A DNA stretch of 38,917 bases from Deltaproteobacteria bacterium (GCA_038150265.1 JAYOTF010000032.1:1-38917), one strand, 5' to 3'; shown: positions 1 to 38,917, counted from the first letter of the stretch. The notes: generated by a model from the sequence alone, not told the origin. Made by a program: numbers and translations.

Positions 1-28
1 AGACTCCGTTTCATTGGTCACTGATTCC

Positions 29-586
29 TCATTGTTTTGAGTCATGTTTGGGTGGATCCTTGAGTTCGTCTTCGAGCTCCTGCTTTGCGGCAGCAAGCTC
101 CTGTTTGGCCATTTCGTGAAATTCCTCAAGAACCTTTGATTCAACCTTGCTCACTCCAGAGGAGTAGAAGAAGCTCCCGGACGCGTCTGCAATCGCAGTG
201 GCCAGGCGCTCCAGGTCTTCGTTAAACTCAACGGCACTCTGGTGGGGAAGGCGACGGTTGATGTACTTCATGATGCCACGCATCCAGTCGTCTTCACGGT
301 TGAGGGTGCCTCCTCGCAGGCGCGCCAGGAGCGCGTCCTTGGACTCAAAGGTTTGCCGGAACAACCAGCGGCTGTATGGGGTTTTGCAGTACTTTCGCTG
401 CTCAATCCATTGAAAGAAGACGCTGAACTCGTCGTCGTCCATCGTCCCATCGGCTTCTGCCACCTTCAGGAAGATCAAAAAGGGAAGCTCCTTCATGGCA
501 GCTTCCCACTGATCCTCCTCACTCTGGTTCTCAGCAGGTTTTTCGGCCTCTTGCTCTGGTGAAGTTGCAGTGGGGTCTTCGCTCAT
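29..586 (-). CDS. TerB-like (tellurite-resistance TerB fold) protein, 185 aa
   Basis: ORF track 29..646; the likelier start is ATG at 586 (MSEDPTAT). Contains 'LKVAEADGTMDDDE' and 'LATAIADASG...VSKVESKVL', matching the paired A-x-ADG-x4-E helices of TerB-like folds. Confidence 0.55.
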   Translation of the reverse strand: MSEDPTATSPEQEAEKPAENQSEEDQWEAAMKELPFLIFLKVAEADGTMDDDEFSVFFQWIEQRKYCKTPYSRWLFRQTFESKDALLARLRGGTLNREDDWMRGIMKYINRRLPHQSAVEFNEDLERLATAIADASGSFFYSSGVSKVESKVLEEFHEMAKQELAAAKQELEDELKDPPKHDSKQ

Positions 587-751
587 GAGTCTCACACAAA
601 AGGTTGAACAAACCTCCGCCGCCCTCGCAAGTTTGACGGCGAGCAACGCAGGCGGCTAAACTGTTCCATGAATCCGGACTGCGTTTGCCCGGTTTTCGTG
701 AGGACACTGGCTGCATAAAACGTGCGCAACTTTTTTCCTCCAACCACATTT

Positions 752-767
752 CGCGGAAACCATGCCA
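752..767 (-). promoter_or_regulatory. Possible sigma-54 (-24/-12) promoter for the TerB-like gene
   Basis: Minus strand reads TGGCATGGTTTCCGCG: GG-N10-GC spacing with TGGCA intact, but the TT before the -12 GC is CC. Confidence 0.25.
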
Positions 768-854
768 GAGCCTTGCCTGCCCATTCAACCGCATCAGCGG
801 TTTCGTTTTGATGTAACGCGTTTCAAATTACCTGTTTTCCGCTAAAAAGCAATC

Positions 855-1703
855 GTGATCCCTTTTGTTGTTGCAAACGTTTACAGCCGGACGTGGGAAG
901 CCCTGACGCATCCGGACCCCACCACCAAAGTCACCCTCACGACTCAACTACGCACCGCCTGGGAAGCGGGCCAGCTGAACCGAGACCCGACTCCCGTGGA
1001 AGCCCTTCCGGTTCCGGGACGTCCGGAACGTCCGGAGCTGGTGCTGCCCCGGAACCTCAAGAAGCGCAAACTCAGCACCCCGGAAGGCCGCGCCGTGCTG
1101 ATTCATGCCCTGGCGCACATTGAGTTCAATGCCATCAACCTTGCGCTGGATGCCGCCTATCGCTTTCAGCAGCTGCCGGATGCCTACCTCTCAGACTGGC
1201 TTCAGGTGGCAGCAGACGAGGCCCGGCACTTCGGGCTCCTGCGGCAGCGACTTCAGGCGCACGGCTTTGACTACGGCGACTTCCCGGCCCACAACGGCCT
1301 CTGGTCCATGGCCTGCAAGACGGCTCACGACCCGCTGGAACGCATGGCGCTGGTGCCTCGGGTCATGGAAGCCCGCGGGCTCGATGTGACCCCGGGAATG
1401 ATCACGCGCTTTGACGCCCTGGGCGATGCCGAAACCGCCGACGTCCTCCGGATCATCTGGCAGGATGAGGTCACCCACGTGGAAATTGGCAACCGCTGGT
1501 TCCACCACCTCTGTCAGGAACGCGCCCTCGACCCCGAATCCACCTTCTATGCGCTGGTCGAGCAGCACATGCCCGGAGGCCTGCGGGGTCCCTTTCACCT
1601 GGAAGGTCGGCGAAAAGCCGGGTTCTCTGAAGCCGAGCTGGAGCGCCTGCAGGTCCAGGCAGCCATTCCCGCCTTGCACTCCTCTTCCGGACCGGTAGCT
1701 TGA
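855..1703 (+). CDS. Ferritin-like di-iron protein (DUF455 family)
   Basis: Motifs HALAHIEFNAINLA, DEARHF, EARGLD and DEVTHV (paired ExxH iron ligands) typical of DUF455. Confidence 0.9.
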   Translation: MIPFVVANVYSRTWEALTHPDPTTKVTLTTQLRTAWEAGQLNRDPTPVEALPVPGRPERPELVLPRNLKKRKLSTPEGRAVLIHALAHIEFNAINLALDAAYRFQQLPDAYLSDWLQVAADEARHFGLLRQRLQAHGFDYGDFPAHNGLWSMACKTAHDPLERMALVPRVMEARGLDVTPGMITRFDALGDAETADVLRIIWQDEVTHVEIGNRWFHHLCQERALDPESTFYALVEQHMPGGLRGPFHLEGRRKAGFSEAELERLQVQAAIPALHSSSGPVA

Positions 1704-1751
1704 ACCTCGGTCTCTCCGGACGTTCGCGCCCGGACTTCCTTTCCTCGCAAG

Positions 1752-4478: not shown

Positions 4479-4525
4479 CCTCCGGGCTTCGCAACCGCAT
4501 CAGGCCCCAATCAGGGAGAGAGACA

Positions 4526-5437: not shown

Positions 5438-5536
5438 CCCCCAGTGAGGCTGCTTGGTTTTTCGCATGGGCTTGTGTATCCTGCCCGTGTCACCCAAGCG
5501 GTGTGCTGTCTGAACCAATCGGCTTTAGGAGAATCC

Positions 5537-6136: not shown

Positions 6137-6261
6137 CTCCCGGCCCGGAGGCTCCTCTTTTGTCCGGATCCAAGGATTTCAATTGAACCTTTTTCTGCAT
6201 TTGAGTAAATCTTTGTGCTTGCTTGATGCAGTCTTTGTGTTGAGTTGACCCAATTTTCCTT

Positions 6262-6281: not shown

Positions 6282-6307
6282 GCTCACTGATCACTAGGAG
6301 AGATCTA

Positions 6308-10927: not shown

Positions 10928-11880
10928 TGTGGCATGAATTCCTCCTCGTCATGGACGCGACCCTCCGGGTTTCGGTTCCCCTCATCTTTGCGGCCATGGG
11001 CGGGATCTTTGCGGAACGTTCCGGAGTGATTGACTTTGGACTGGAAGGCAAGATGCTCGCCGGCGCCTTTGTTGCTGCCGCAGTGGCGCATGTGACCCAA
11101 TCGGCCTGGATGGGCATCCTCGGTGCCATCAGCATCGGCGTCCTGCTCTCGCTGGTGCATGGGTTGGTGAGTGTCACCAAAGCCGGAAACCAGGTGGTCT
11201 CGTGTGTGGCCATCAACGAAGTCGCCCGGGGCCTGACCGTGGTGCTGGCCGTGTGGTGGTTTGCGCAAGGCGGCAAGACGCCTCAGTTGCCCAAGGAAGC
11301 CCGCTTCATGGCGCTCGAGCTTCCCTTTGTGGAGGAAATCGGCTCCATTCCGATCGTCGGGGAAATTTACGCGGAGCTGCTCAGCGGCCACAACATCCTC
11401 GTCTACCTCGCCTTTCTCTGTGTGCCGCTCACCGCGTGGGTGCTGTACCAGACCCGATTTGGCCTGCGCCTTCGGGCGACCGGAGAGAACCCCCTTGCCG
11501 TGGATACGGCCGGCATCTCGGTGCAGTCGATGCGGTACCGGGCCCTGATCATCAACGGCGTGCTGGGAGGCCTCTCGGGCGCCTACCTTTCCACTGCCCA
11601 GATTGCCTTCTTTGCCAAGGACATGTCTGCCGGAAAGGGCTACTTTGCTCTTGCCGCCATGATCTTCGGCAAGTGGCGGCCGTCCACCGCCTTGCTCGCC
11701 TGCCTCCTGTTCGCGTTTCTGGACGCCTGGGGGAACCGGCTGCAGGGAACCCCGGGCGTTCCGGTCGCCCTAATCCAAGCCTTACCTTATGTGCTTACAG
11801 TCGTCCTGTTAGCCGGGTTTGTGGGAAAAGCAGTTGCGCCCCAGGCCATTGGAGAGCCCTTCGTCAAGGAACGTAAATGA
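10924..11880 (+). CDS. Nucleoside ABC transporter permease 2
   Basis: FAERSGVIDFGLEG, FGLRLRATGENP, GKGYFALAAMIFGKWRP, LPYVLT; ATGA overlap. Confidence 0.93.
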   Translation: MMWHEFLLVMDATLRVSVPLIFAAMGGIFAERSGVIDFGLEGKMLAGAFVAAAVAHVTQSAWMGILGAISIGVLLSLVHGLVSVTKAGNQVVSCVAINEVARGLTVVLAVWWFAQGGKTPQLPKEARFMALELPFVEEIGSIPIVGEIYAELLSGHNILVYLAFLCVPLTAWVLYQTRFGLRLRATGENPLAVDTAGISVQSMRYRALIINGVLGGLSGAYLSTAQIAFFAKDMSAGKGYFALAAMIFGKWRPSTALLACLLFAFLDAWGNRLQGTPGVPVALIQALPYVLTVVLLAGFVGKAVAPQAIGEPFVKERK

Positions 11881-12812
11881 GTGCAGCACTGGGAATTGAA
11901 GCCATCGGAACCTTTTTGCCGGAGGGTCGCCTCTCCAACCTCGACCGGATGGAGGCGTTCAGCATGACGGAGCAGACCGTCCGGGAGAAGGTCGGGTTCC
12001 TGTCCGTCAGTCAAAAGGAGCCCGAGATGGAGACCTCGGACCTCTGCGTCCGGGCCTGGCAGGCGCTCAAGCAGCAGCGCCCCATCCGCTCGGAAGAAGT
12101 GGAATGCGTTGTCGTCTGCACCCAGAATCCCGATGGCTACGGCCTCCCACACACCTCGGCGATCGTCCACCGCAAGCTGGGGCTGTCCCAAACCTGTGCC
12201 GCCTTTGACATCTCCCTCGGCTGCTCCGGATTCGTCTACTCCCTCTCCATCATCCAGGCCTTCATGCAGGCGCAGGGCATGAAAACCGGAGTCCTCTTCA
12301 CCGCAGACCCGTATTCGAAGGTCATCGACGCCAACGACAAGAAGACCAGCACGCTTTTTGGAGACGGCGCGGCAGCGACGCTGATCACCGACCAGCCCGT
12401 CTGGAAGAGCGGGGCCTTCGAGTTTGGCTCCGATGGCACCAAGTGGGACAGCATTGTCGTCCGGGACCAGACCCTGCACATGAACGGACGGGCGGTGTTT
12501 ACCTTCTCCGTCCGAATGATTCCCGACAGCATCCGGGCGATGCTGCAGAAGAACGACCGGACCCTCGCCGAGGTCGACCGCCTGCTGCTGCATCAAGGCA
12601 GCCGCCACATCGTCAACTCCATTGCCGACGAGCTGGGCGTCTCACGCGAGAAGTGCCCCTTTTACGCGGAAGGATACGGCAACACCGTCTCCTCCACGGT
12701 TCCCTTCATGCTGGCAGAAGAGTTCCACAATCCAGACCTCCAGACCCTGTTGGTCGCGGGTTTTGGAGTGGGGCTTTCCTGGGCCAGCACCCTGCTGTTC
12801 CGGCAATCGTGA
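11877..12812 (+). CDS. 3-oxoacyl-ACP synthase III (FabH-like)
   Basis: Cys-His-Asn triad: AFDISLGCSGF, LLHQGS, YGNTVSS; also LFGDGAAA and GFGVGLSW. Confidence 0.9.
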   Translation: MSAALGIEAIGTFLPEGRLSNLDRMEAFSMTEQTVREKVGFLSVSQKEPEMETSDLCVRAWQALKQQRPIRSEEVECVVVCTQNPDGYGLPHTSAIVHRKLGLSQTCAAFDISLGCSGFVYSLSIIQAFMQAQGMKTGVLFTADPYSKVIDANDKKTSTLFGDGAAATLITDQPVWKSGAFEFGSDGTKWDSIVVRDQTLHMNGRAVFTFSVRMIPDSIRAMLQKNDRTLAEVDRLLLHQGSRHIVNSIADELGVSREKCPFYAEGYGNTVSSTVPFMLAEEFHNPDLQTLLVAGFGVGLSWASTLLFRQS

Positions 12813-16544: not shown

Positions 16545-18611
16545 TTACCCCTTTTCGGTATGCGTGAAGACCACGTTCCAGCCACTGGGGTCAATCAGGT
16601 ACTGCCGGCAGCGTTCCAGCATGACCTCTGAGGGGCCATCTCCGGGGTGAATCGAGAGCGCCTTCTCAAAGTGCTGAACCGCCGCCTGGAAGTCGGCTTC
16701 CTGGTAGACCTGCAGGCCCCTGGCATACTCCTCCACCGCTCCAGCGATGGTTCCGGAGGTCTGGTTCTTCTTGGCAAGCAGTTCATAGACATGAACCGGA
16801 TCGTTGCGCCCCACGACCCGGATGACATCCAGCAAGCGTGCATCCACAGCCTCCTGAGCCTGCTGGTAGGTGTCTCCGGAGACCATCGTGTAGTTCTTGT
16901 AAAACTTGTTGGCGCCTTCCAGGCGAGCGGCCAGATTGACCGTATCCCCCATCATCGTGTAGTCCATGCGCTGAGCCGACCCCATGTTGCCAACGACAAT
17001 CGGACCACTGTTGATGCCCTGCCGGGCGTAAAGCTGGTCGCGGCCCTGTTGCTTCCAGACCTGGCGCATCTCGGCGAGGCGCTCCTGCATGTCGATCGCA
17101 GCCAGGCAGCTGAGGGTGGCATGGTTGGGCTGATCCAGAGGCGCCCCCCAGAAGGCAATGATGGCATCGCCCTCGAACTTGTCGATGGTTCCGTTGTGAG
17201 AAGAGATGATGTTGCACATCTCGGTGAGGTACTCATTGAGCAGCTGCACCAGCTCCTCCGGAGTCAGTTTTTCCGAAATGGTGGAAAACTTCTGGACGTC
17301 TGAGAAGTAGGCCGTCATCTCTCGGCGCTCGCCTCCCAGCTTCAGTTTGCTCGGATCCTCGACAATGACATCAATCACCGCTGGAGAGAGGTACTGCGAG
17401 AAGGCCCCCTTGATGAAGGTCTTCTGCTTGCGCTCCTTGAGGTAGAGGAAGAGGTTGATGAGGACAAAGCTGAGGACACACGCCAGCAACGCGTAGGTCA
17501 TGGAAAACGCGACACCGTGGTAGACGTAGGCGTAAAAGGCGGCCACGGTGTACGCCAGGGTGATCAGCAGGTACAGGGGAGTGGCGAAGTGTCCGGCATG
17601 GGACGCGGCCACAAACAGCAGGAACAGCGCCAGCAGCACCGCCAGCTCCGCCAGCTCCGGAGCCGGACGGATCGGGCCATTGGCCATGATGGTCTTGATC
17701 GTGTCAGCCAGGATCTCAATTCCGTACACCTCTCCAATGGGAGTCTCAAAGATATCGTGTGACACCTCTGACGTGTCTCCCACCAAGACAATCTTCCCCT
17801 CCACGAGCGGGCGCAGGTCTTCCGTTTCGTAATCAAACTCCTCCTCCGGAATGTCTTCGAGGTCCATCAGGATCATCGCTGCCGTAATCGCTGCCGGCGT
17901 GTCCTTGCTGAGGAAGTTGGTGTGCGGAGGCAAGCTCGGAAAATCGATCCAGAGGTCGTTGTTGTGATCCAGCGGAGCCCGGTAGGGACCCACGACCAGG
18001 GTTTGCCCTTCGAGGCGGGGCTCTTCGCCTACTGCCATTGAAAGGGCCTTCACGGCAAACGGCCAGATGTTGTGTTCCTGATGAATTTCGGGGTAGAAGC
18101 GGACACGGGAAAGGTTGCTGCCGATGAGCGTGTGGTTCGTGTAGCCATTCTGCGTCGCTTCCGCCAGCACCTCAGTGGGCCCGTTGATGCCAATCAGCTG
18201 CTGATTCTTGAGCTGGAGCTGCGACACGACCATCGTGTTCCCAGCCGCGTGCAGGGCTTCGGCAAGCAGCGGGTCTTCGCCATAGCCATTGGGGAAGTCC
18301 ATCAGCATGTCGAGCGCCACCACCTTGGCGCCCAGTTTGTGGAGGTAGGTGACGATTTTGGCAATGTCGGCTCGCTTGAGGGGCCAGCTGCCGTATTCGT
18401 CAAAAAACTCCTCCTCCGTGTCAACAATCAGGATCTCATCGTAAGGAAATTGGGTCTGCTCCGGAGGCAGGGTGCTGTTGCGCCAGATGTGCCGGAACCC
18501 GAGGAGCTGGTTTTCGACCATCGGAAAGAGTTCCAGGCGCTCGGCTGGAACCATGAGCAAAAAGAGCAGGCCGACCATCCACAATTCTGGACGATTAAAA
18601 AGCTTTTTCAT
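16545..18611 (-). CDS. CHASE2-domain class III adenylate cyclase with a C-terminal TPR-like helix pair
   Basis: Likely ATG 18611 (MKKLFNRP); N-terminal TM, CHASE2-like region (WP..R, GAKVVALD, GKIVLVG, YGIEILA), three TMs, cyclase motifs FSDVQKFS, DKFEGD, GINSG, DYT..GDTVNLAARLE (K/D residues indicate ATP specificity). Confidence 0.92.
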   Translation of the reverse strand: MKKLFNRPELWMVGLLFLLMVPAERLELFPMVENQLLGFRHIWRNSTLPPEQTQFPYDEILIVDTEEEFFDEYGSWPLKRADIAKIVTYLHKLGAKVVALDMLMDFPNGYGEDPLLAEALHAAGNTMVVSQLQLKNQQLIGINGPTEVLAEATQNGYTNHTLIGSNLSRVRFYPEIHQEHNIWPFAVKALSMAVGEEPRLEGQTLVVGPYRAPLDHNNDLWIDFPSLPPHTNFLSKDTPAAITAAMILMDLEDIPEEEFDYETEDLRPLVEGKIVLVGDTSEVSHDIFETPIGEVYGIEILADTIKTIMANGPIRPAPELAELAVLLALFLLFVAASHAGHFATPLYLLITLAYTVAAFYAYVYHGVAFSMTYALLACVLSFVLINLFLYLKERKQKTFIKGAFSQYLSPAVIDVIVEDPSKLKLGGERREMTAYFSDVQKFSTISEKLTPEELVQLLNEYLTEMCNIISSHNGTIDKFEGDAIIAFWGAPLDQPNHATLSCLAAIDMQERLAEMRQVWKQQGRDQLYARQGINSGPIVVGNMGSAQRMDYTMMGDTVNLAARLEGANKFYKNYTMVSGDTYQQAQEAVDARLLDVIRVVGRNDPVHVYELLAKKNQTSGTIAGAVEEYARGLQVYQEADFQAAVQHFEKALSIHPGDGPSEVMLERCRQYLIDPSGWNVVFTHTEKG

Positions 18612-18818
18612 GAAACAACTGAGTCGTAAGGAGTTAAGGCGATGGCTGCGGGACCAGGTCAAGAAGCTCCTGCACCATGCCACACCTGCTGGAAATGCAC
18701 AAACAGCTCGTGCGGACGCGATGAAGTCGCAGTTGACCTAACGGCAGGAAGTGCCCTACAGTAAGGGCCGTTGCACCGAACTTGCTGCCCGCCAGCAAGC
18801 CCTTTTCTCTGATGGCTC

Positions 18819-21818: not shown

Positions 21819-23306
21819 TTAGCGCTTCATGTTGACGAGGTCGGTGATCATCTCGTCAGAAGTCGTCACGGTCTTGGCGTTGGCCTGGAAGGCCCGCTGC
21901 GACTCAATCATCTTCACAAACTCGTTGGAGAGGTCCACAGTGGACTGCTCCAGGCTCATGCTCCGGATTTCTCCAAAGCCGGCGGTGCCCGCCTGACCGG
22001 TCACCTTCTTGCCCGCCCCCTGCGTTTCACGGAGGAGGTTGTCTCCGATCTGGGCGAGCTTGCCGGGGTTGTCAAACTTGGTCAGCACCACCCGTCCAAT
22101 CGGTCGGGTGTAGCCGGAGTCAAACACCCCTTCCACCGTGCCGTCACTCTTCACAGAGATGTTCTCCAGAGTTCCGGAGGCGTTCCCGTCTGCACTGGCG
22201 CGGATGACGTTGTACTTGCCAGCAAACTGGGTCAGTCCGTCCAGACCGGTCCGCGGATCTGTCGGATCATCCGGATTGAAGCCATCGCCCAGGTGCAGTC
22301 CCAGCACCACGGGATCCTCTCCGTTAAACGGTACAGCAAACTGCGGGACCCCGGTTTCCGGATCCACCGGTTGAGGCACCAGACGAGGCGGTCCCCCCGG
22401 AAGCGCCTGTCCGGTAGCCGGATCGACGCCCCCCGGGGTGGCTTCAAAGGAGCCACTGGTGGCCGCAATGAGCTTGCCGTCATCCGTGAACTGCAGGAAG
22501 CCTCCGCCCACAGCGACCTGGGTGCCAGGCATCTGTCCCAGAGAAGCGCCATCCAGCATCAGGTAGTACTCCCACTGGTTCCGGACTCCGGTTCCCGGGA
22601 TCGGGAGGCCGGTGGCCGCATCGACCTGCTCAGGCAGATCCGGACGCTTCCGGAAGGCCACTGTGGCCGTGTGGCTGTTTCCGTATTGGTCATACACCGT
22701 GGTCGAGGTGGCAAAGTTGTACATGGAGTCCCGAACGTTGGTCGGGTCCAGCGGCATGTCCTTGACCACGGCGTTGGCGTCCAGGTTGACGGCCACCCGG
22801 ATGCCGGTTCCGTTTCGTCCGTCACCGGTCGGCTGAGGCGGATCCACCAATCCCAGCACCTTCAAGGAGCCGGGCAGGCCCTTGCTTTCGCCGGTGTTCC
22901 GGTCCACTTCCAGCGCCTGCACGCGGTGTCCGCGCGGAGTGGAGAGGAAGCCTTCCTTGTCGTAGGAAAACTGTCCATTCCGGGTGTACATTTCTTTTCC
23001 GGTCGCCGGGTCGACGACCGTGAAGTACCCTCCGCCTCCGATGGCCATGTCGGTCGCCATGGAGGTGGTCTCAAATGCCCCTTGCGTGAACTCCTGTTCC
23101 ACGCTGCCGATCTTCACCCCGTTGGACACCTGAGTGAACGAACCCCCTTGCGGGTAGTTGTTTCCCATCAGGTCTTCAAAGGCCACGATGTTGCGCTTGA
23201 AGCCGTAGGTATTGACGTTCGCAATGTTGTTACCAATCACCTGCATCGCCTTGCCGTGGGTTTTCACCCCACTGGCGCCAGTTTGCAGCGATCCTAATAA
23301 AGCCAT
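21819..23306 (-). CDS. flgE: Flagellar hook protein
   Basis: IGNNIANVNTYGFK, DMAIGGGGYF, YTRNGQFS.DKEG, C-terminal LEQSTVDLSNEFVKMIESQRAFQANAK; AAGGAG RBS; follows flgD. Confidence 0.95.
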   Translation of the reverse strand: MALLGSLQTGASGVKTHGKAMQVIGNNIANVNTYGFKRNIVAFEDLMGNNYPQGGSFTQVSNGVKIGSVEQEFTQGAFETTSMATDMAIGGGGYFTVVDPATGKEMYTRNGQFSYDKEGFLSTPRGHRVQALEVDRNTGESKGLPGSLKVLGLVDPPQPTGDGRNGTGIRVAVNLDANAVVKDMPLDPTNVRDSMYNFATSTTVYDQYGNSHTATVAFRKRPDLPEQVDAATGLPIPGTGVRNQWEYYLMLDGASLGQMPGTQVAVGGGFLQFTDDGKLIAATSGSFEATPGGVDPATGQALPGGPPRLVPQPVDPETGVPQFAVPFNGEDPVVLGLHLGDGFNPDDPTDPRTGLDGLTQFAGKYNVIRASADGNASGTLENISVKSDGTVEGVFDSGYTRPIGRVVLTKFDNPGKLAQIGDNLLRETQGAGKKVTGQAGTAGFGEIRSMSLEQSTVDLSNEFVKMIESQRAFQANAKTVTTSDEMITDLVNMKR

Positions 23307-25581: not shown

Positions 25582-26172
25582 TCATTTCTTGCTGGCAATT
25601 TCGGCAATCAACTCAGCGGATTGAGCAGCGCCCATGTTCGACAGTACTTCTGAGGCCTGCTTGTCCTTCATCCGCATCAGGATGTTTACGGCAACTTTGC
25701 GATCCAGGTTCGAGATCGACTGGGCAGCGGTGGCGGCATCCATCTTCGAATAGAAGGCGACCGCTTTGTCCAGCATCTCGTTGTCCTGAGCCTTTTTGGC
25801 TTCAATGCCTTGCTCAATCTCTTGTTGCAGGGTCTCCAGCTGCGTGATCTGGCGCTGAATGTCTTCCTGCAGGGCCTTTAGCTGAGTTTCCCGACGATCC
25901 AGGTCGGTTTCCCGAAGACGCATCCGCTCCTGCTGATCGGCAAGGCGCGTCAGAATCTCCTTTTCAGTAGCCGTAAACTCACGAGGCTTTTGGGCGCCAT
26001 CTGCCGCTTCCGGAGGAGGCGAGGCACAGAAGTCCAGCCCATATTCCCGACACAGATCCCCGAACGCCTGCGTGGCTTCGTCTACGCTGGTCGGTATGCT
26101 ATAAGCGGGCCTTGGCTGAAAAAGAATCAGAGTCGTCAAGGCTACTAAACTGATTAAAAACGAATTTTTCAC
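25582..26172 (-). CDS. MotE/FlbB/YlxF-like flagellar protein (coiled coil + MgtE_N-like domain)
   Basis: Likely GTG start at 26172 with a hydrophobic N-terminus; coiled coil; C-terminal YSKMDAATAAQSI...IL.RMKDKQASEVLSNM; located between fliJ and fliK. Confidence 0.8.
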   Translation of the reverse strand: MKNSFLISLVALTTLILFQPRPAYSIPTSVDEATQAFGDLCREYGLDFCASPPPEAADGAQKPREFTATEKEILTRLADQQERMRLRETDLDRRETQLKALQEDIQRQITQLETLQQEIEQGIEAKKAQDNEMLDKAVAFYSKMDAATAAQSISNLDRKVAVNILMRMKDKQASEVLSNMGAAQSAELIAEIASKK

Positions 26173-26245
26173 ACGCAAATCGGGAAAGAGGTCAAAGGGG
26201 CAGAGTCCGGCCCTCCGGCAGAGGAAGAAGGTTGCAGCAAAAAAC

Positions 26246-26689
26246 TCATGTCCTTTCTCGGTAACGTCGCAAGTTCTGGGCAATTTCATCCGCCTCCATG
26301 CGTTCGCGACGCTCCATCTCGGCACGATGCTCCCGCTCCTGCTTTTCTTTCAAAATTTCCAACACCCGCTTCTTCTGAGAAGCCCGGGTCAGTTCCTGAC
26401 GCTTCAGTTGCACCACCTGCTGCTGGCGACGGAGGTGCTCATCCGTGACTTCCAAGATGCGTTCCAAGCGGCTCTGGAACTGCTGGCTCATCTGCAGGTC
26501 TGCCACGGTGAAGCCGGTTTGCTTGGACTGGTTGGTCTTGTCCAGGTTGTCAGCCAGGGCCTCTTGCACCAGGTCCTGCTGACGCTGAATGCGCTGCTCA
26601 ATCTGAAGCTCCTCCGCCAGTGCTTTCTGGTAGAGCTTCTCCAGGCGTTCCCGGACCTTGAGTGCCGTTTCGAGGTTGAAGCGAGGCAT
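26246..26689 (-). CDS. fliJ: Flagellar export chaperone
   Basis: 147 aa coiled-coil protein starting MPRFNLETALKVRE and ending LEILKEKQ...ERMEADE; flagellar context. Confidence 0.88.
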   Translation of the reverse strand: MPRFNLETALKVRERLEKLYQKALAEELQIEQRIQRQQDLVQEALADNLDKTNQSKQTGFTVADLQMSQQFQSRLERILEVTDEHLRRQQQVVQLKRQELTRASQKKRVLEILKEKQEREHRAEMERRERMEADEIAQNLRRYRERT

Positions 26690-31987: not shown

Positions 31988-33916
31988 ATGATCAGCCTGG
32001 CTGGCCTTACAATGAATTATGGACAGAAGGTCCTGTTCGAGGATGTCTCCCTCAGCTTTGACCCCGGCAAGCGTTACGGGCTGGTGGGCGCCAACGGCGT
32101 GGGGAAGACCACCCTCCTGCGGATCCTCTCCAACGAGGAGACCCCGACGGCAGGAGTCGTCTCGGTTCCTCGGCAGGCCCAGGTCGGTGTCCTCAAGCAG
32201 GATCACTTCCAGTATGAGAAGGAGTCGGTGCTGAATGTCGTCCTGCGGGGACGTCAGGAGCTCTGGGACGCGATGCATGAAAAGGAGCACCTCCTGGAAA
32301 GTGGGCAGCAGGATGCTGAAACCGGGCACCGCCTTGCCGAGCTGGAGGGCATCATCGCCGAGCAGGACGGCTACGTCGCCGAGTCCTTTGCCGCTGAGCT
32401 GCTGGCCGGGCTGGGCATTGGGAATGCGTACCATCCGGGCCCCATGAGCGCCCTCTCCGGAGGCTTCAAGCTCCGGGTGCTGCTGGCGCAGTTGCTCTTC
32501 CGACGTCCGGATGTGCTGATGCTCGACGAGCCCACCAACCACCTGGACATCGTTTCCATCAAGTGGCTGGAAGCCTTCCTCCGTGACCAGTTCAATGGCA
32601 CGCTGATCTTCATCTCCCACGACCGCCAGTTCCTCAACTCCGTGGCCACGCACATCGTGGACATCGACTACCAGGAGCTGCGCCTCTACCCCGGAAACTA
32701 CGAGCAGTTTCTGGATGCCAAGGCGCTCAATGAAGAGCAGAAGAAGAAGCTCATTGAAAGCCAGGAACGCAAGGTCGCAGAAATGCAGGCGTTTGTGGAC
32801 CGGTTCCGCTACAAGGCCACCAAGGCTCGCCAGGCGCAGTCCCGGGCCAAGATGATCGACAAGATGGAGATCCCGGAAATCAAGCGTTCCTCCCGGATTG
32901 CACCGCAGCTTCGGTTTGAGCAAACCCGCCCCTCCGGGAAGGTCGTGCTGCAGGCAGAAGGCCTCTCCAAGTCCTATGGTCCGGTCTCGGTGCTGGAAAA
33001 CATCTCCCTCGAAATTGAACGGGGGGAACGGGTCGCTCTCATTGGCCCAAACGGCATTGGCAAGTCCACGCTCCTCAAGTTGCTCCTGGAACAGATTCCC
33101 GCCGATGCGGGCAACTGGGAGTGGGGCCACGAGGTCAGCATTTCCTACTTTGCTCAGGATCACCACGAGCAGCTTCAGGGCAAAACCAGCGCCTACGAGT
33201 GGCTCTATCAGTATGCCCCTCAGGAAACCGTCAGCTTCATCCGCGGCCTGCTGGGACGGGTCCTGCTCTCGGGCGATGAGGCCATGAAGCAGGTCAAGTC
33301 TCTGAGCGGAGGCGAGTCTGCACGCCTGCTCTTTGCGCGGATGATGCTGGAAAAACGCAACGTGCTGGTGCTCGATGAGCCCACCAACCACCTGGACCTG
33401 GAAGGCGTGGACGCGCTGGCGGAAGCCGTTGCGCAGTACCCCGGAACCGTTCTGGTGGTCAGCCACGACCGGCACTTCGTCCGGCACATTGCCACCCACA
33501 TCCTCGAGCTGACTCCCGAGGGCGCCCGGAACTTCAAGGGCAGCTACGATGAGTTCCTGGAACGCTTTGGCGATGACTACCTCAGCCGCGACCAGGCCCT
33601 TTCCCAAACCCGAGACAGCGCTCCCGCAAAGTCCGGACCCTCCGGAGCGGAACGGCGCGAGGCCCGCAAGCAGCTGACGCGCCTGGAGCGAGACGCCGAA
33701 AAACTGGAACGCAAGATTGCCGAAAAGGAGCAGGAGATCGAATCCATTGATGCTCGCTTCGGCGCTGAAGACTTTTATCAGAACACCCCGCCTGAGAAAG
33801 TCAGAGAGCTTGAGAAATACAAGCAACGCCTGACCAACCGCCTCAATGATGACCTGAAACAGTGGGAGAATGTTGCTGAACAATTAGAAAAGGTCAAAGA
33901 CCTCGTTGGTGCCTGA
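31988..33916 (+). CDS. ABC-F family ribosome-associated ATPase (YbiT-like core with a C-terminal coiled-coil extension)
   Basis: Two NBDs (GANGVGKT/LSGG/LDEPTNHLD; GPNGIGKS/LSGGE/LDEPTNHLD), inter-domain linker FRYKATKARQAQSR, no TM segments. Confidence 0.95.
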   Translation: MISLAGLTMNYGQKVLFEDVSLSFDPGKRYGLVGANGVGKTTLLRILSNEETPTAGVVSVPRQAQVGVLKQDHFQYEKESVLNVVLRGRQELWDAMHEKEHLLESGQQDAETGHRLAELEGIIAEQDGYVAESFAAELLAGLGIGNAYHPGPMSALSGGFKLRVLLAQLLFRRPDVLMLDEPTNHLDIVSIKWLEAFLRDQFNGTLIFISHDRQFLNSVATHIVDIDYQELRLYPGNYEQFLDAKALNEEQKKKLIESQERKVAEMQAFVDRFRYKATKARQAQSRAKMIDKMEIPEIKRSSRIAPQLRFEQTRPSGKVVLQAEGLSKSYGPVSVLENISLEIERGERVALIGPNGIGKSTLLKLLLEQIPADAGNWEWGHEVSISYFAQDHHEQLQGKTSAYEWLYQYAPQETVSFIRGLLGRVLLSGDEAMKQVKSLSGGESARLLFARMMLEKRNVLVLDEPTNHLDLEGVDALAEAVAQYPGTVLVVSHDRHFVRHIATHILELTPEGARNFKGSYDEFLERFGDDYLSRDQALSQTRDSAPAKSGPSGAERREARKQLTRLERDAEKLERKIAEKEQEIESIDARFGAEDFYQNTPPEKVRELEKYKQRLTNRLNDDLKQWENVAEQLEKVKDLVGA

Positions 33917-33965
33917 CCCGTGCCGAGCCCTTTGAGTTTTCAAACGCTTTTCCATCAAAGGACCT

Positions 33966-36900
33966 ATGAAGCCCTTATCTTTATCTCTGATTTATCCCTT
34001 CCTCTTCTTATTCCTCTGGAGCCTTCCCGCTGCCGTGAGCGCTCAGACCGAACCGGCTCCGGCCACAGCCAATGTTGAAGCCTCCGAAGAGGCGGAACGA
34101 TGGGATCAGTCCCGAACCCAAACCGAGCAGCAGTACAGCGAGGGCAACCTCGAAGAGGCGCTCAACTCAGCCAAGGAAACCGTTGCCATTGCCGACGAAG
34201 TCTTCGGCCCCGCTGACGCCCGCACCCTGGAAAGCTTCCTGCTGCAAGCACAGATTGAAAGTGACCTCGGGCTCTATGAAGAAGCCAATCAAACCTACCA
34301 GCACACGATTGAACTCGCCCAACAGGGTCCGGGACTGGAAGACCCCCTGACGCTCAACGTGGTGGACCGCTACGCCGATTTTCTTTCGTGGGTGGGCGAC
34401 TTCGAAAACGCTGAAGCGCTGCAGCGACAGGTCATTGACCTCTCAGCCACGGCCTTGGGGGCTGAGGCGCCACAAACCCTGCTGCGGCAACGGGCACTTG
34501 CGCTGAACCTTCAAAGCCAGGGACGCTTTCAGGAGGCGGACGAGTTGCTCACCCAAACCGCCACCCAGCTGCAGGCGGTCCTCGGCCCGGAAGATCCGGA
34601 GGTGCTGGAAACCCAGTCTCACCGGGTGCGGCTGCTGATGCAAACCGGCCAGCTGCCTCAAGCCCGAGAGCTCGTGGAGCCGCTTCTGCAGCAACAGCAG
34701 TTCAACTACGGCGACTCCGCCATTCCGACCCTCGAGTCTCAGGAAAATCTGGCTGAGATCCTCCGGCAGCAAGGAGAGTACGAAGCCGCAGAAGCACGCT
34801 TCCAGGAAATGCTTCAATTGGCTCAAGCCGAGCTGGGACCGGAAGACCCCCTGACGATTCAAGGCAAGAGCCACCTGGCTCAGCTTTATGAAGACACCGG
34901 ACGCCTCGATCAGGCGCTCCTCCTGCACCAGCAGGTCTATGATGTGGAAGTGGCCCTGCTGGGTCCGGACCACCCGAATGTTGCCACCGACCTCAACAAC
35001 ATCGCCAGCGTCCAACGGCGCATCGGCAAGCTCGCAGAGGCCGAACAGAACTTCCGGAGGTCCCTTCAGGTGATGTCGGAAACCCTGGGAGACGACTCGC
35101 CACAAGCCATCTCGGTCTCCAACAACCTGGCGCTGCTGCTCGAAAATCAGGGCATCTACGATGAAGCTGAGCCGCTCTACCAAAAAGCGCATGCCAGCGC
35201 CGACGTCGTTTTGGGCCCGGATCATCCGACCACCCTTGCTCTGGCCAACAACCTGGCCATGCTTTATGAGTCTCAGGGGGACTTCAGTCGGGCGGAACTG
35301 GCGTACAAGCAGGTCAACGAGCGCAATGCCGCAGTGCTGGGCCCCGAGCACCCCAGCACCCTGGCTGGGCTCAACAACCTGGGCTACCTCTACCTGCGGA
35401 TGGAACGTCCCGCTGAGGCCTTGCCGCTGTTCCAAAATGCCTACCGCCTCTGGTCAGACAGCCTCGGAGAAAAGCACCAGAACACCCTCAAGGCCCTCAA
35501 CAACCTCGGCCGGGTGCAGATGCAACTCGAAGACTACGAAAATGCTGAGCTGAACCTCCAGGCTGCGCTGGAAGGCCGCCAGGAAGTGTTTGGGGAGCGG
35601 CACCCGGATACGCTGCGAAGCATGAACGACATGGGGGTCCTGCTCGGCAAGCAGGAACGCACCGACGAAGGCGTGGACCTGCTCCGGAAGACCCTGGAGC
35701 TGGAAAAGGAAGTCCTGGGCGAGGCCCACCCCTACACCTTTGAAACCCGAAATGCCCTGGCCGATCTGCTGGAACAACTGGGTCAGCTCAATGATGCCTT
35801 CGAAATTCGCCGAGACGGATTTGCCCAGCGCAACACCTTCTTCGACCGCGTCCTTTGGGTCGCTGGAGACAACACCCGCAAGGGCTACATCAGCCTCCAC
35901 AAGCCAGAACAGGACGCCTACATCCGGAACCTCCTGCAACTCGAAGACACCGAGCTGGCCGCAAGGGAACTCCTGAACGTCAGCCTCCAGCGCAAGGGGT
36001 TGCTGCTCAAGATCACCAGCGAGACCCAGCAAATTGCCAAGCTGTCGAACGACCCGAAGCTGGCCGAAACGGCAGCCGGGCTGCTGACCGCCCGCAAGGA
36101 GCTCGCGGCCCTCACTCTGGCGGGCCCGACTCCGGAGAACAAGGACATCTTCCTCCAGCTGGTTCATAACCTTGAGGAACAGGTCAACAGCCTTCAGCTG
36201 AAGATTGGGGAGCAGAGCCTGCGCTTCCGGGAGTCCCGTCAAACCGTGTCCGCGGATCAGGTGCTGGAGGCCCTGGGGGACGTCGCCCTGGTGGACTTCC
36301 TGACCTACCAGGATGACATGGGCGACGCTTCACTGGTGGCCATTGTGGCCTCCGGAGGCTCCGTTCAGTATCACGATTATGGGACGTCGGACTACATCAC
36401 CGACATGATCATGGAGTACCGCGAGGTCATCCAGGACTTCGGAATGGCCGATGAAGACGTCAAGCTGGCGGGCTACGACATGTGGGATGTCCTGTGGTCT
36501 CCCCTGACGGAGGCCCTGGGCGAAAGTGAGGCCCTCTACCTGATCCCGGACGGGTCCCTCAACGTGCTTCCGTTTGATGCCCTGGTTGATGACAACGACG
36601 AGTACCTCATTCAGTCCCTCGACCTCCGGCTCATCAGCTCGGCTCGCGACCTCGTGCTGGATCCGCTTGCTCCTGCAACAGGCGAGGTGGTCATTGTCGC
36701 GGGTCCGGACTATGACACCGACCAGATCCTGCAGTCTCCCCAGGCCCGTGCCGTCACCGGAAAGCGTTCCGGAAGTGTGGCCCAGGGAGCCCGCATGGGC
36801 TCTGGACTCCGAGGCCTGAGCTTTGATCCGCTCCCCGGTGCCGAAAAGGAAGGCTCCATCATCGAAGCCGTCTCCAGGGACAAGGAGCGCGCCACTCAGA

Positions 36901-37499
36901 TCTTCTCCAAGCGAGATGGCGAGGAAGAGCAGCTCCGGTCGCTGCCGGAAGTGCCCGAGGTTCTGCACATTGCCACTCACGGCTTCTTCCTCAAGGAGGA
37001 AGAGCGGCTCGCCCAACGCATCGCCGGGCTCAACCGCGGAAGCACCAACCGGGTCCCTCCTCCGGGCGACAACCCGCTGCTCCGGGCGGGGCTGGCCTTT
37101 GCCGGCTTGAACGCCAATGCGCCTCTGCTCGGAGAGATTGACACCGACAACGACGGCGTCTTGACCGCAATGGAAGTGCTGTCGCTCGACCTCGTGGGCA
37201 CTCAACTCGTGGTGCTTTCTGCGTGTGAAACCGGATTGGGAGAAATTCATGACGGCGAAGGCGTCTATGGCCTGCGACGGTCCTTCCAGGAAGCCGGTGT
37301 CCGTGCCGTCGTCAACTCCTTCTGGGAGGTGAGCGATGACGGAACCCAGCACCTGATGACGGAGTTTTATGACCGCTACCTAGAGGGCACGTCTCCTCGA
37401 GACGCCCTCCGGGAAGCCCGGTTGGAGATGGTCAATGATCCGCGGTGGAGTTCCCCCTTCTACTGGTCGGCCTTTGCCCTGGTGGGGCGGAATAGCTAA
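33966..37499 (+). CDS. Exported TPR-repeat CHAT (caspase HetF-associated) protease
   Basis: Signal peptide ending VSA-Q; about a dozen or more 42-aa kinesin-light-chain-type TPRs (LGPDHP...NNLA); CHAT catalytic His (LHIATHGFF) and Cys (VLSACETG); C-terminal PFYWSAF. Confidence 0.92.
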   Translation: MKPLSLSLIYPFLFLFLWSLPAAVSAQTEPAPATANVEASEEAERWDQSRTQTEQQYSEGNLEEALNSAKETVAIADEVFGPADARTLESFLLQAQIESDLGLYEEANQTYQHTIELAQQGPGLEDPLTLNVVDRYADFLSWVGDFENAEALQRQVIDLSATALGAEAPQTLLRQRALALNLQSQGRFQEADELLTQTATQLQAVLGPEDPEVLETQSHRVRLLMQTGQLPQARELVEPLLQQQQFNYGDSAIPTLESQENLAEILRQQGEYEAAEARFQEMLQLAQAELGPEDPLTIQGKSHLAQLYEDTGRLDQALLLHQQVYDVEVALLGPDHPNVATDLNNIASVQRRIGKLAEAEQNFRRSLQVMSETLGDDSPQAISVSNNLALLLENQGIYDEAEPLYQKAHASADVVLGPDHPTTLALANNLAMLYESQGDFSRAELAYKQVNERNAAVLGPEHPSTLAGLNNLGYLYLRMERPAEALPLFQNAYRLWSDSLGEKHQNTLKALNNLGRVQMQLEDYENAELNLQAALEGRQEVFGERHPDTLRSMNDMGVLLGKQERTDEGVDLLRKTLELEKEVLGEAHPYTFETRNALADLLEQLGQLNDAFEIRRDGFAQRNTFFDRVLWVAGDNTRKGYISLHKPEQDAYIRNLLQLEDTELAARELLNVSLQRKGLLLKITSETQQIAKLSNDPKLAETAAGLLTARKELAALTLAGPTPENKDIFLQLVHNLEEQVNSLQLKIGEQSLRFRESRQTVSADQVLEALGDVALVDFLTYQDDMGDASLVAIVASGGSVQYHDYGTSDYITDMIMEYREVIQDFGMADEDVKLAGYDMWDVLWSPLTEALGESEALYLIPDGSLNVLPFDALVDDNDEYLIQSLDLRLISSARDLVLDPLAPATGEVVIVAGPDYDTDQILQSPQARAVTGKRSGSVAQGARMGSGLRGLSFDPLPGAEKEGSIIEAVSRDKERATQIFSKRDGEEEQLRSLPEVPEVLHIATHGFFLKEEERLAQRIAGLNRGSTNRVPPPGDNPLLRAGLAFAGLNANAPLLGEIDTDNDGVLTAMEVLSLDLVGTQLVVLSACETGLGEIHDGEGVYGLRRSFQEAGVRAVVNSFWEVSDDGTQHLMTEFYDRYLEGTSPRDALREARLEMVNDPRWSSPFYWSAFALVGRNS

Positions 37500-37532
37500 G
37501 GGGATCGTCTGAAAACGACCTTCCGTGCCCGG

Positions 37533-38390
37533 TTGCTCCAACCCATGTGGAGCCTGCACCTGGCCATTTTGGGATTTGGCCTGACCGGGCTCTTTGGCAA
37601 GTGGCTGCCTCACTCGCCGGTCGTCATCACTGCTGGACGAGCCGGGTTCGGCGCCCTGACCCTGCTCGGCCTCCTGCTGTGGCGCCGAGAGTCTCTTTGG
37701 GTGCCCCGGCGCGATGCAGCCTGGCTGGCCCTCACGGGGGTCATCCTGGCGGGACACTGGATGACCTTCTTCCACAGCATCCAGGTGTCTTCAGTTGCCA
37801 TTGGCCTGATGGCCTTTTCCAGCTCTCCGGTCTTCACGGTGCTGGTGGAGCCCTGGGTCTTCCGGGAACGGCTGCGTCCCATCGTGCTAGCCGCCGTTGG
37901 GGTCGTGGTGGTCGGACTGGTTCTCATTGCGACCTCCGGAGAGTCCCTCAGCTGGGAGTCTCAAACCCTGCAGGGGGTCGCATGGGGGCTGGTTGCCGGA
38001 ATGCTGCATGGGTTTCTCGGCATCCTCAACCGCCTTCACGTTCGTGCTCACTCAGCGCTGCGAGTGGGCTTCATTCAAGATGGCGTGGCGGCCCTCATTT
38101 TGTTGCCCTTTGCCCTTCACTCCTTTGCGGCCCTGTCCGGAAACGACTGGCTGCTGATTCTGCTCCTTGGTACGGTCTTCACGGCTGGGGCACACGGACT
38201 GCTCATCCATGTTCTGAAATTCGTTCAGGCCCAAGTGGCCAACCTGCTGGTTGCCGGCCTTGAACCCGTTTACGGAATCCTCCTGGCGCTGCTGCTGCTG
38301 GGAGAGGTTCCCGCCACTCAGGCCCTGTTGGGCGGTGTCTTGATCATCGCCTCCACGCTTTACATTACCGTTCATCCCCCCGGGGACTAA
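37533..38390 (+). CDS. DMT/EamA family transporter
   Basis: About 10 hydrophobic segments in two EamA repeats; SSPVFTVLVEP and LEPVYGILLA..LLGE. Start uncertain (TTG 37533, ATG 37545, or CTG 37509 after AAGGGG). Confidence 0.9.
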   Translation: MLQPMWSLHLAILGFGLTGLFGKWLPHSPVVITAGRAGFGALTLLGLLLWRRESLWVPRRDAAWLALTGVILAGHWMTFFHSIQVSSVAIGLMAFSSSPVFTVLVEPWVFRERLRPIVLAAVGVVVVGLVLIATSGESLSWESQTLQGVAWGLVAGMLHGFLGILNRLHVRAHSALRVGFIQDGVAALILLPFALHSFAALSGNDWLLILLLGTVFTAGAHGLLIHVLKFVQAQVANLLVAGLEPVYGILLALLLLGEVPATQALLGGVLIIASTLYITVHPPGD

Positions 38391-38411
38391 TCCTTCTTGT
38401 TCATCACGCTC

Positions 38412-38917
38412 ATGCCTGCAGATCCCAACCCGCCCCGCGACTCCGACGAGCCGAAACTCGAGCCCATCGAAGACAGTCGCCCCCTTCGCATCCGGAAGCG
38501 TCAGGAGTCACGACCCGCTCCTTCACGTCGACCCGCAGCGAAGGCTCCCCAAGACGACGTCTGGCCCCAGAAGGCTGAGGAACGACGCCATCGCCAGGAT
38601 CACCAGCGCTTCCGGGAACTCGCCTCCAGCGACCAGCTCTACGACCGCAGCAAGCCGCGCAGCTACCAGGACCGCTGGCAGGACCGGGACCGCCAACAGG
38701 ATCGCCTCCATGAACGCCGCCGGCCCGGAGGAGGACGCTCTCGGGAAGAAGGCTCAGAAAGAGGACGGCGCTCCGACTCACCACGCCCGCCTCGTAACCG
38801 TGAGGATCGCTCTCGTTGGGAAGATCGCCCCCGGAGAGACGACAGGCCTCGGAGAGATGACCGGTTTCAAAGGGACGAACGCCCCAGACGTGACGAACGA
38901 CCTCGGAGAGATGACCG
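38412..38917 (+). CDS. Partial ORF: Arg/Asp/Glu/Pro-rich disordered N-terminus, runs off the window end
   Basis: ATG 38412, open to the end of the window: MPADPNPPRDSDEPKLEP...EDRPRRDDRPRRDDRFQRDERPRRDERPRRDD; missing from the ORF track because it has no stop. Confidence 0.75.
   Translation, partial: MPADPNPPRDSDEPKLEPIEDSRPLRIRKRQESRPAPSRRPAAKAPQDDVWPQKAEERRHRQDHQRFRELASSDQLYDRSKPRSYQDRWQDRDRQQDRLHERRRPGGGRSREEGSERGRRSDSPRPPRNREDRSRWEDRPRRDDRPRRDDRFQRDERPRRDERPRRDD
38802..38917 (+). repeat. Degenerate 18-bp coding tandem repeat encoding (D/E)(D/E)RPRR
   Basis: Units gaggatcgctctcgttgg / gaagatcgcccccggaga / gacgacaggcctcggaga / gatgaccggtttcaaagg / gacgaacgccccagacgt / gacgaacgacctcggaga / gatgaccg (truncated). 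Confidence 0.85.

Follow-up and report, generated by a model that had tools for sequence, protein, structure and literature searches.

The palindrome TCCGGA is iterated throughout the genome of an uncultured Deltaproteobacteria bacterium (GCA_038150265.1), one contig of which, C32 with its full length of 38,917 nucleotides (JAYOTF010000032.1:1-38917), is referred to here as the window. We found that the word is hyper-abundant both within and between genes, beyond anything that codon usage accounts for, and that neighbouring copies are set at preferred angles around the DNA helix with a period of 10.5 bp. The density and the rotational setting of neighbours are maintained while single copies are gained and lost quickly, and the pressure behind this acts evenly on all genes, whatever their codon bias. 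Based on these observations, we favour with moderate confidence the explanation that TCCGGA serves the whole genome as a recognition word of the highly iterated palindrome (HIP) type, read on double-stranded DNA by a putative lineage-specific and probably dimeric DNA-binding factor of a nucleoid-organising or chromosome-marking kind.

Abundance and uniformity of TCCGGA

The window's own genome, G000, comprises 3.39 Mb in 87 contigs (61.3% GC, 97.8% complete). A simple self-trained open reading frame (ORF) scorer called 2,791 genes in it, covering 88% of the genome; within the window the scorer matches most ORFs supported by Pfam and misses at least those at 11877-12812 and 25582-26325. TCCGGA is the commonest hexamer of G000, with 9,711 copies or 2.86 per kb. 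Its observed/expected ratio (O/E) is 8.67 under a mononucleotide model, 7.57 under a dinucleotide model and 3.95, 2.39 and 1.22 under models of order 2, 3 and 4, the last value being so low because the pentamers themselves are mostly parts of TCCGGA (A follows 9,711 of the 18,017 copies of TCCGG). The other palindromes of the form NCCGGN lie below expectation (O/E 0.66 for ACCGGT, 0.68 for GCCGGC and 0.67 for CCCGGG), which rules out an equal enrichment of all such words.

When synonymous codons were shuffled within genes (40 shuffles), 2,111.6 copies were expected (standard deviation, sd, 39.6) and 8,728 were seen (O/E 4.13, z = 167), so that TCCGGA has the highest z of all 4,096 hexamers and, if only words of 200 or more copies are counted, also the highest O/E. 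An origin in codon or dipeptide bias is refuted by this shuffle, which preserves both protein and codons, and all three codon phases are enriched, as the first-pass annotation of the window had argued from the phases alone. Among coding sites at which the protein permits the word, 41.0% carry it (8,725 of 21,276) against 8.9% expected from codon usage. The occupancy is 33.6% in the Ser-Gly phase (TCC-GGA), 37.6% in the [FLIV]-Arg-[IMTNKSR] phase (xTC-CGG-Axx) and 48.7% in the x-Pro-[DE] phase (xxT-CCG-GAx), with 2,058, 2,389 and 4,281 coding copies by phase; 8,767 of all 9,711 copies lie wholly within coding DNA. The log odds of occupancy relative to the codon-usage expectation are about 2.0, which suggests a weak advantage per site or an equivalent fixation bias. 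In the DNA outside the gene calls, some of which belongs to missed genes, TCCGGA is again the commonest hexamer (937 copies, 2.38 per kb, O/E 7.7/6.1/3.7).

The first-pass annotation had proposed a genome-wide iterated palindrome comparable to the cyanobacterial HIP1, and this proposal is borne out: the excess extends to every codon phase and to DNA outside genes, it is specific among NCCGGN words, the sites are more conserved than comparable ones and the trait is common to many relatives. Two outcomes had been named beforehand as speaking against it, an O/E near 1 under a null that preserves codons and dinucleotides and an equal excess of all NCCGGN words, and neither was observed.

How evenly is the word spread over the genome? 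Occupancy lies between 0.39 and 0.43 in each codon-bias decile and in each gene-length quartile; by codon-bias decile we found no dependence on expression. From gene to gene the occupancy scatters as a binomial would (chi2/df = 1.02 for the 1,852 genes that offer 5 or more permissive sites), and no gene stands out once Bonferroni correction is applied. The density in 1,235 segments of 5 kb has an sd of 0.81 per kb against a Poisson value of 0.76, with no empty segment. Foreign islands devoid of TCCGGA were sought and none was significant: the poorest 5-kb segments still hold 3 copies, no gene falls under the Bonferroni threshold, and motif-poor stretches are poor because they offer fewer permissive sites. 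The density is about two-fold lower within 50 bp of start codons. The flanks are weakly palindromic, G-C-Y-TCCGGA-R-G-C, with less than 0.1 bit per position, both genome-wide and in 912 intergenic copies, and of the 10-mers that include the word the most frequent occurs 275 times. A mobile repeat of the repetitive extragenic palindrome (REP) or miniature inverted-repeat transposable element (MITE) type was rejected, as flank conservation does not extend beyond this weak GCY...RGC and most copies are coding.

Helical phasing, distribution among relatives and site turnover

The spacing of TCCGGA pairs within genes was compared with two nulls. In the first, occupancy was re-dealt within each gene and codon phase among the sites that permit the word (200 draws); in the second and stricter one, each site was assigned the occupancy that its amino-acid context, one of 452, has over the whole genome. 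Under the first null we observed a 10.5-bp period with an amplitude of 479 against a maximum of 148 in the 200 draws (z = 15), with excesses at 31, 41-42, 52 and 63 bp and deficits at 11-17, 22-26, 34-36 and 44-47 bp. Under the context null the peak lies at 10.50 bp (z = 15.1), in-phase spacings being about 17-19% over and anti-phase spacings about 10% under expectation. The phasing is present in spacings divisible by 3 (z = 8.9) as in those not divisible by 3 (z = 9.3), and each of 8 chunks of about 400 kb is in phase when taken alone (8 of 8, z from +1.9 to +4.6). Its coherence declines with distance, from z = 8.2 at 61-120 bp through 6.6 (121-200 bp) and 4.8 (201-300 bp) to 2.8 (301-450 bp), with nothing farther. 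Seven other abundant palindromes gave z values of at most 2.9 at scattered periods, and thus the phasing is specific to TCCGGA. G000 has a general AA/TT periodicity of 10.5-11.4 bp; no phase coupling of TCCGGA to WW or SS dinucleotides (W, A or T; S, G or C) was seen in this genome at 10.5 bp (z at most 1). The binding of a chromosome-organising factor, which had been offered at first only as an alternative, gains support from this rotational phasing, the factor itself remaining putative.

Is the same rotational rule followed by relatives of this bacterium? We counted pairs 27-110 bp apart and called in-phase those within a quarter turn of whole 10.5-bp turns, for which the null in-phase fraction is 52.4%. 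The counts (in-phase:anti-phase), in-phase percentages and binomial p-values were as follows, where g1 denotes the genus of the window's own genome and g11 and g12 two further genera:

G000: 1510:1019, 59.7%, p = 1e-13
G002 (g1): 115:68, 62.8%, p = 0.005
G018 (g11): 73:31, 70.2%, p = 2.5e-4
G044 (g11): 56:31, 64.4%, p = 0.03
G051 (g11): 37:21, 63.8%, p = 0.09
G013 (g12): 76:143, 34.7%, reversed, p = 1.5e-7

At these distances the samples of g1 and g11 prefer the same helical face, whereas G013 prefers the opposite face (Fisher p = 1e-12 for its phase counts against those of G000). Spacings of 30-34 and 40-41 bp do not occur at all in G013, where pairs accumulate at 36-39, 44-49 and 57-60 bp; the two halves of its sample agree on the anti-phase setting (z = -3.3 and -2.3), which also holds under a protein-preserving null (z = -3.9, 571 pairs). 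When G002 and G013 were pooled, the periodic signal cancelled because their phases are opposite. Since two genera follow a same-face rule and a third an opposite-face rule, it would be a trans-acting factor, rather than the mechanics of TCCGGA, that sets the rule. The chemistry of the word being the same everywhere, the flip in sign speaks for a reader or chromatin context that acts in trans and is specific to the lineage. A helical rule with a genus-dependent sign would be a direct signature of a protein that reads DNA in register.

The abundance of the word varies as well. We surveyed 64 genomes of the order with the reversed word AGGCCT as a composition-matched control and found the following TCCGGA:AGGCCT ratios:

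g12: 14-30
g11 (18 genomes): 1.6-32, the three lowest genomes being only 51-57% complete
g4: 3-8
g1 (own genus): 3.9-5.9
g6: about 4.6
g3: 3.8
g7 and g10: 1.8-2.6
g2 (9 genomes), g5, g8 and g9: 0.8-1.4
family f2, most genomes: 0.6-2.0
G023, G021 and G026 (family f2): 0.13-0.25, avoidance

In G023, for instance, 133 copies of TCCGGA stand against 987 of the control. A survey of the phylum (88 genomes) compared the 8-mer TTCCGGAA with its control AAGGCCTT. Family f4 is enriched (63 copies of TTCCGGAA against 3 of AAGGCCTT), and within family f7 genera g33 and g35-g37 are enriched (8-mer ratio 2.6-6.9) whereas g38 and g40-g43 avoid the 8-mer (3-30 copies against 228-333 for the control). Altogether G023, G021, G026, G067, G068, G081 and G083-G087 avoid TCCGGA or the 8-mer 4- to 100-fold relative to the reversed-word control. 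The avoidance of the word, 20- to 100-fold in some relatives, suggests that TCCGGA is 'seen' across the phylum.

Samples of 107-400 kb per genome gave the rank of TCCGGA among hexamers, its density, its dinucleotide O/E and its occupancy:

G002 (g1): GC 59.7%, rank 1, 2.20 per kb, O/E 6.0, occupancy 0.33
G013 (g12): GC 57.1%, rank 1, 2.46 per kb, O/E 7.0, occupancy 0.33
G044 (g11): GC 43.0%, rank 1, 1.94 per kb, O/E 9.8, occupancy 0.34
G018 (g11): GC 43.6%, rank 3, 1.49 per kb, O/E 8.8, occupancy 0.25
G051 (g11): GC 40.7%, rank 23, 0.98 per kb, O/E 6.6, occupancy 0.18
G007 (g6): GC 47.8%, rank 302, 0.44 per kb, O/E 1.26, occupancy 0.085
G014 (g2): GC 45.2%, rank 2,575, 0.17 per kb, O/E 0.93, occupancy 0.035

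Because O/E values of 6.0-9.8 occur across 41-61% GC and the occupancy follows the trait, the trait is independent of GC content and evolutionarily labile. It ranges from a 20-fold avoidance to a 30-fold excess among related genera and varies even within one genus, so that phylogenetic profiling could pin down the gene responsible.

The window has a syntenic counterpart over its whole length in contig C16 of G002 (81.5% identity), where 55 of the 109 aligned copies of the window are kept, against 30% for other hexamers; in G001, 17 of 59 copies are kept against about 21%. Over 431 kb of G000 and G002 aligned at 81.9% identity, 561 sites are shared, 658 are found only in G000 and 402 only in G002. 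The fractions kept are therefore 46% and 58%, compared with 33.5% for other hexamers, i.e. a modest excess of conservation with fast turnover. With both half-sites folded together, the alternative states at unshared sites are T1>C (162), C3>T (89), C2>G (87), T1>G (84), C3>G (49), C3>A (38), T1>A (33), C2>T (33) and C2>A (5). The differences between the two genomes thus fall at all positions and include transversions; they fit synonymous alternatives and not the spectrum of a deamination-repair process. Copies found only in G000 lean towards being in phase with the shared copies (277:206 at 27-300 bp, p = 0.026). Gained sites lie 27-60 bp from lost ones 64 times against 41.9 expected, a comparison in which the local density of permissive sites is not controlled.

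Candidate readers and rival explanations

If TCCGGA is a recognition word, each copy would carry a small advantage, through weak selection or an equivalent fixation bias, and the reader would contact or organise the DNA in register with the helix, e.g. by cooperative or filament-like binding. That neighbours within about 300 bp stand at preferred rotational angles points to a reader working in this way. The reading may involve methylation of the word or may do without it. More tentatively, we speculate that TCCGGA could be the docking word of a putative chromosome-coating protein system in the phylum, which would give bacterial chromatin a rotational register encoded in the DNA sequence. The geometry of the reader oligomer would then set the same-face (g1, g11) or opposite-face (g12) spacing, and the sister lineages that are neutral or avoid the word would be those in which the reader was lost or a restriction system took its place. 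If this were true, finding the reader would give the first experimental handle on the purpose of HIPs.

Several points weigh against a helically reading factor. No reader protein was found; SeqA, the histone fold and MutH are all without a match in G000, and the uniform, expression-independent, binomial occupancy is equally expected from a genome-wide fixation bias by repair or conversion. Operator-like arrays or autoregulatory clusters are absent from the genome, with at most 4 copies per 120 bp, a number reached at 21 places. An underpowered comparison of G000 with G002 gave no sign that lost sites are replaced in phase (71:58, p = 0.6). Among the relatives, the strict protein-preserving null leaves the in-phase preference of G002 and G018 at z of about 2 only (samples of 320-440 kb), G044 has no phasing signal over 27-300 bp, and the opposite-face rule comes from 400 kb of a single g12 genome, G013. 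The binomial p-values for in-phase and anti-phase counts, moreover, treat pairs as independent.

HIPs were recognised in cyanobacteria decades ago, and no function of theirs has gained acceptance; TCCGGA appears as a denser counterpart in an unrelated, uncultured lineage. Like HIP1 (GCGATCGC) and the alternate cyanobacterial HIPs, as described in Elhai 2015 (PMC4390886) and Xu et al. 2018 (PMC5861425), it is a GC-rich palindrome that is hyper-abundant in and between genes beyond codon usage, more conserved than comparable words and variable among lineages, with selection apparently acting on the distribution and not on single sites. Unlike HIP1, it is a 6-mer and not an 8-mer, is found in a different phylum and is denser (2.9 per kb); CGATCG itself is under-represented in G000 (445 copies, O/E 0.40), whose host is not a cyanobacterium. 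For HIP1 a periodicity of 18-94 kb is given in Xu et al. 2018 (PMC5861425), whereas that of TCCGGA is 10.5 bp with a lineage-specific sign. Full-text searches, with subscription-only papers and REBASE outside their scope, turned up no description of hyper-abundant TCCGGA or of HIPs with helical phasing, and the accessible portion of Elhai 2015 (PMC4390886) does not mention the word.

Elhai 2015 (PMC4390886) models the accumulation of HIPs through methyl-directed repair and reports a word-specific methyltransferase where a HIP is frequent. By analogy, an orphan methyltransferase would mark TCCGGA (e.g. as N4-methylcytosine), and a methyl-directed process, either strand discrimination in mismatch repair or a SeqA-like sequestration, would favour its accumulation to about one or more per kb. 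We regard such a methylation-linked origin, in either form, as unlikely. Profile searches of G000, which is 97.8% complete, found no C5 methyltransferase (PF00145), no Vsr (PF03852), no N6 methyltransferase of type I or IIG (PF02384), no MutH (PF02976), no SeqA (PF03925) and no histone-fold match; as controls, PF00145 matched 9 and PF03852 3 of 14 named genomes, PF02384, PF02976 and PF03925 likewise had matches among named genomes, and a search for Bse634I/Cfr10I was uninformative for G000, its control having matched nowhere. In the phylum, any PF00145 match was found in 3 of the 19 strongly enriched genomes (8-mer ratio of at least 10), full-length in 1, whereas 5 of 6 avoiding f7 genomes carry a full-length C5 methyltransferase. 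The C5 methyltransferase/Vsr route of the Dcm type is excluded by this gene content, and words with T in place of C are not depleted under the codon null (TTCGGA/TCCGAA, O/E 0.92; TCTGGA/TCCAGA, 1.26).

Two genes of G000 match PF01555, both with an SPPY motif, one on contig C45 and one on contig C51. The C45 gene encodes a 258-residue SPPY enzyme of the N6_N4 type (L022:1441-2217) and directly follows a retron-type reverse transcriptase (L022:35-1444; NCBIfam retron St85 family, E = 4e-59), the stop of which overlaps its start. As the cause of the trait this enzyme was rejected, since among the relatives a full orthologue occurs only in G001 (71% identity), as does the pair with the reverse transcriptase. 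The second gene touches the window itself:

38397-38917, plus strand: 3'-open ORF, predicted N-terminus of the only amino-methyltransferase-like gene conserved across the order, by synteny with G002 and G001

This ORF probably continues as the FMGGGT...SPPY gene at the start of contig C51 (C51:2-1387), because contig C16 of G002 aligns up to the end of the window and the orthologue begins right there. In G002 the orthologue has 730 residues, of which about 350 form R/E/D-rich, RREDRPRYEDRP-like charged repeats that precede the FMGGGT...SPPY methyltransferase domain; the break between the window and C51 falls in these repeats. Most of the order retains this gene, with an EamA transporter and a TerB-like gene next to it. 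The C51 gene matches PF01555 (E = 3e-9) and UPF0020 (E = 3.5e-6) and contains, in a 47-residue motif-I stretch, the only match of G000 to the Dam-type PF02086. Its weak best solved match is the DNA cytosine-N4 methyltransferase 8s9n (E = 1.7e-5 over 24 residues), and it also resembles the tRNA m2,2G methyltransferase 5e71, so that its likeness to DNA N4-cytosine and to RNA m2G methyltransferases is weak in both directions.

Judged by its sequence, the C51 gene is a candidate modifier of TCCGGA, and its conservation and its likeness to 8s9n speak for a methylation-linked origin. Its likeness to RNA m2G enzymes and its long R/E/D-repeat N-terminus speak against it, as does its distribution: orthologues with 41-49% identity are present in the TCCGGA-neutral g2 (7 of 9 genomes) and in the avoiding G023, and among the 64 relatives none was found in g7, g10 or the enriched G018. 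Its presence was therefore rejected as a predictor of the trait. A motif screen of the 2,791 gene calls returned no further DNA amino-methyltransferase and one extra candidate, a 194-residue DPPY protein that resembles the rRNA methyltransferase RsmD. As a separate observation, the avoiding genomes G021, G026 and G023 each show 16-18 matches to an N6_N4 methyltransferase query.

Measured against the cognate methyltransferase expected for a HIP, G000 thus has no C5 enzyme and two SPPY genes that do not track the trait, and the maintenance of TCCGGA by a CCGG- or TCCGGA-specific methyltransferase with biased repair, as suggested in the first-pass annotation, is not supported by the gene content. 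The lack of a cognate C5 methyltransferase and of Vsr separates the phenomenon from the leading methylation-repair explanation. In sister lineages the same word is strongly selected against, as in restriction-site avoidance, and many of these genomes possess C5 methyltransferases; in G000 the sign is opposite, i.e. accumulation.

A precedent for the phasing is SeqA of E. coli, a methyl-dependent reader which, according to PMC2691817, reads a short palindrome, GATC, in hemimethylated pairs on the same face; that such a reader can impose a same-face preference counts in favour of a methylation-linked origin. A same-face preference of neighbours is likewise seen in G000, with four further g1 and g11 genomes leaning in that direction; unlike the SeqA system, however, G000 has no SeqA or Dam homologue and one genus favours opposite faces. 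To our knowledge, GATC is not hyper-abundant in E. coli.

Could the word accumulate without any function? A fixation bias may turn near-matches into TCCGGA, through repair of the very-short-patch type, biased gene conversion or uptake and recombination, its abundance then being an equilibrium. The uptake sequences of Haemophilus and Neisseria occur about once per kb, and drive alone has been argued to be able to maintain them; Dcm/Vsr very-short-patch repair can raise the frequency of CCWGG, the target word of a methyltransferase. The gene-independent, exactly binomial occupancy, the near-Poisson density and the fast site turnover would all agree with such a drive, as would the mild enrichment of the one-off words TCCGGG/CCCGGA (O/E 1.57 under the codon null). 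A context-blind conversion, however, predicts neither a 10.5-bp phasing that is coherent over 300 bp nor a flip in sign between genera. Neighbours arising by C-to-T change are not depleted, G000 has no Vsr, and the differences between congeners affect all positions, transversions included; compared with Dcm/Vsr, the effect is also far larger, and it is phased. We therefore consider a functionless drive quite improbable.

An uptake factor as its agent would not predict the phasing either. Known uptake signals are longer than TCCGGA and not palindromic. Uptake signal sequences and DNA uptake sequences (USS/DUS), like Chi, are short words present about once per kb in all frames and kept by genome-wide bias or selection; they are longer than TCCGGA, non-palindromic and often biased in orientation, and we know of no report of helical phasing for them. 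The DNA uptake sequences have 9-12 bases, in contrast to a 6-base palindromic core with flanks of less than 0.1 bit (competence genes were not searched).

We further considered whether phased TCCGGA forms a bendability or curvature code without a specific reader, a GC-rich counterpart of phased A-tracts. The period of 10.5 bp is the helical repeat of relaxed B-DNA, and the general AA/TT periodicity of G000 would suit this view. Intrinsic mechanics nevertheless seem a very improbable cause: TCCGGA is not coupled to the WW or SS phase, the effect is specific to a single hexamer while other NCCGGN words are at or below expectation, and the same word is set same-face in g1 and g11 and opposite-face in g12, is neutral in g2 and is avoided in other genera. 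Finally, the view that TCCGGA is abundant only because of codon usage, dipeptides or base composition has next to no probability left: the low order-4 O/E and the commonness of TCC, GGA, CGG and CCG as codons would agree with it, but the word ranks first under the codon-preserving shuffle, is enriched in all phases and in non-coding DNA, and remains so from 41 to 61% GC.

The window and other words of the genome

The window holds 114 copies of TCCGGA, whereas 100 shuffles that preserve dinucleotides average 15.34 (sd 3.3) and never exceed 23, so that none reaches 114. Other palindromes are less frequent (ACCGGT 12, GCCGGC 23, CCCGGG 16), and the reversed-word control AGGCCT occurs 23 times. 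Inside gene calls lie 107 of the 114 copies, with 35, 27 and 45 by phase, and 107 of 251 permissive sites (42.6%) are filled. The count of 29 copies in the first 7.1 kb or so, made by eye at the outset, proved exact at or before position 7100, and the coordinates of three copies in the DUF455 gene place them, as had been claimed, in three different phases (1022, xxT-CCG-GAx; 1447, xTC-CGG-Axx; 1686, TCC-GGA). The features concerned are:

1-38917, no strand: TCCGGA field, 2.9 per kb, in an ordinary chromosomal stretch with gene names from Pfam
855-1703, plus strand: DUF455 gene (PF04305, E = 2.4e-100), with further TCCGGA copies at 911 and 1031
673-678, no strand: intergenic TCCGGA in the spacer between an ORF ending at 646 and the ORF starting at 855
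1715-1720 and 6163-6168, no strand: further TCCGGA copies in intergenic spacers, from their coordinates against the gene calls
1022-1036, no strand: close TCCGGA pair, 9 bp apart, from the list of neighbour spacings
22639-22654 (10 bp) and 33632-33646 (9 bp), no strand: close TCCGGA pairs from the same list

By Pfam, the genes of the window include DUF455, polA, a gluconolactonase, a nucleoside ABC transporter, parB, a CHASE2 cyclase, flgE, flgD, fliK and TPR-CHAT. The flagellar hook cluster is accompanied on one side by an adenylate/guanylate cyclase with a CHASE2 sensor (16545-18683, minus strand) and on the other side by a 1,177-residue TPR-CHAT protein, in which a caspase-like CHAT domain follows about 10 TPR units (33966-37499, plus strand).

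Other words deviate from expectation in G000 as well. The codon shuffle revealed a second family that is 2.2- to 2.8-fold over-represented (TCATCA, TCCTCA, CATTGA, TCATTG, TCAATG, GCTTCA, TCTTTG and CTTCAT), a codon-context bias that has no relation to TCCGGA. Of the common palindromes, GAGCTC has the strongest deficit under the order-4 Markov model (698 copies against 1,637 expected, O/E 0.43), hexamers containing CTAG are very rare, and CGGCCG, CCGCGG and CTCGAG stand at 0.4 of the codon-null expectation; these deficits are typical signatures of restriction avoidance.

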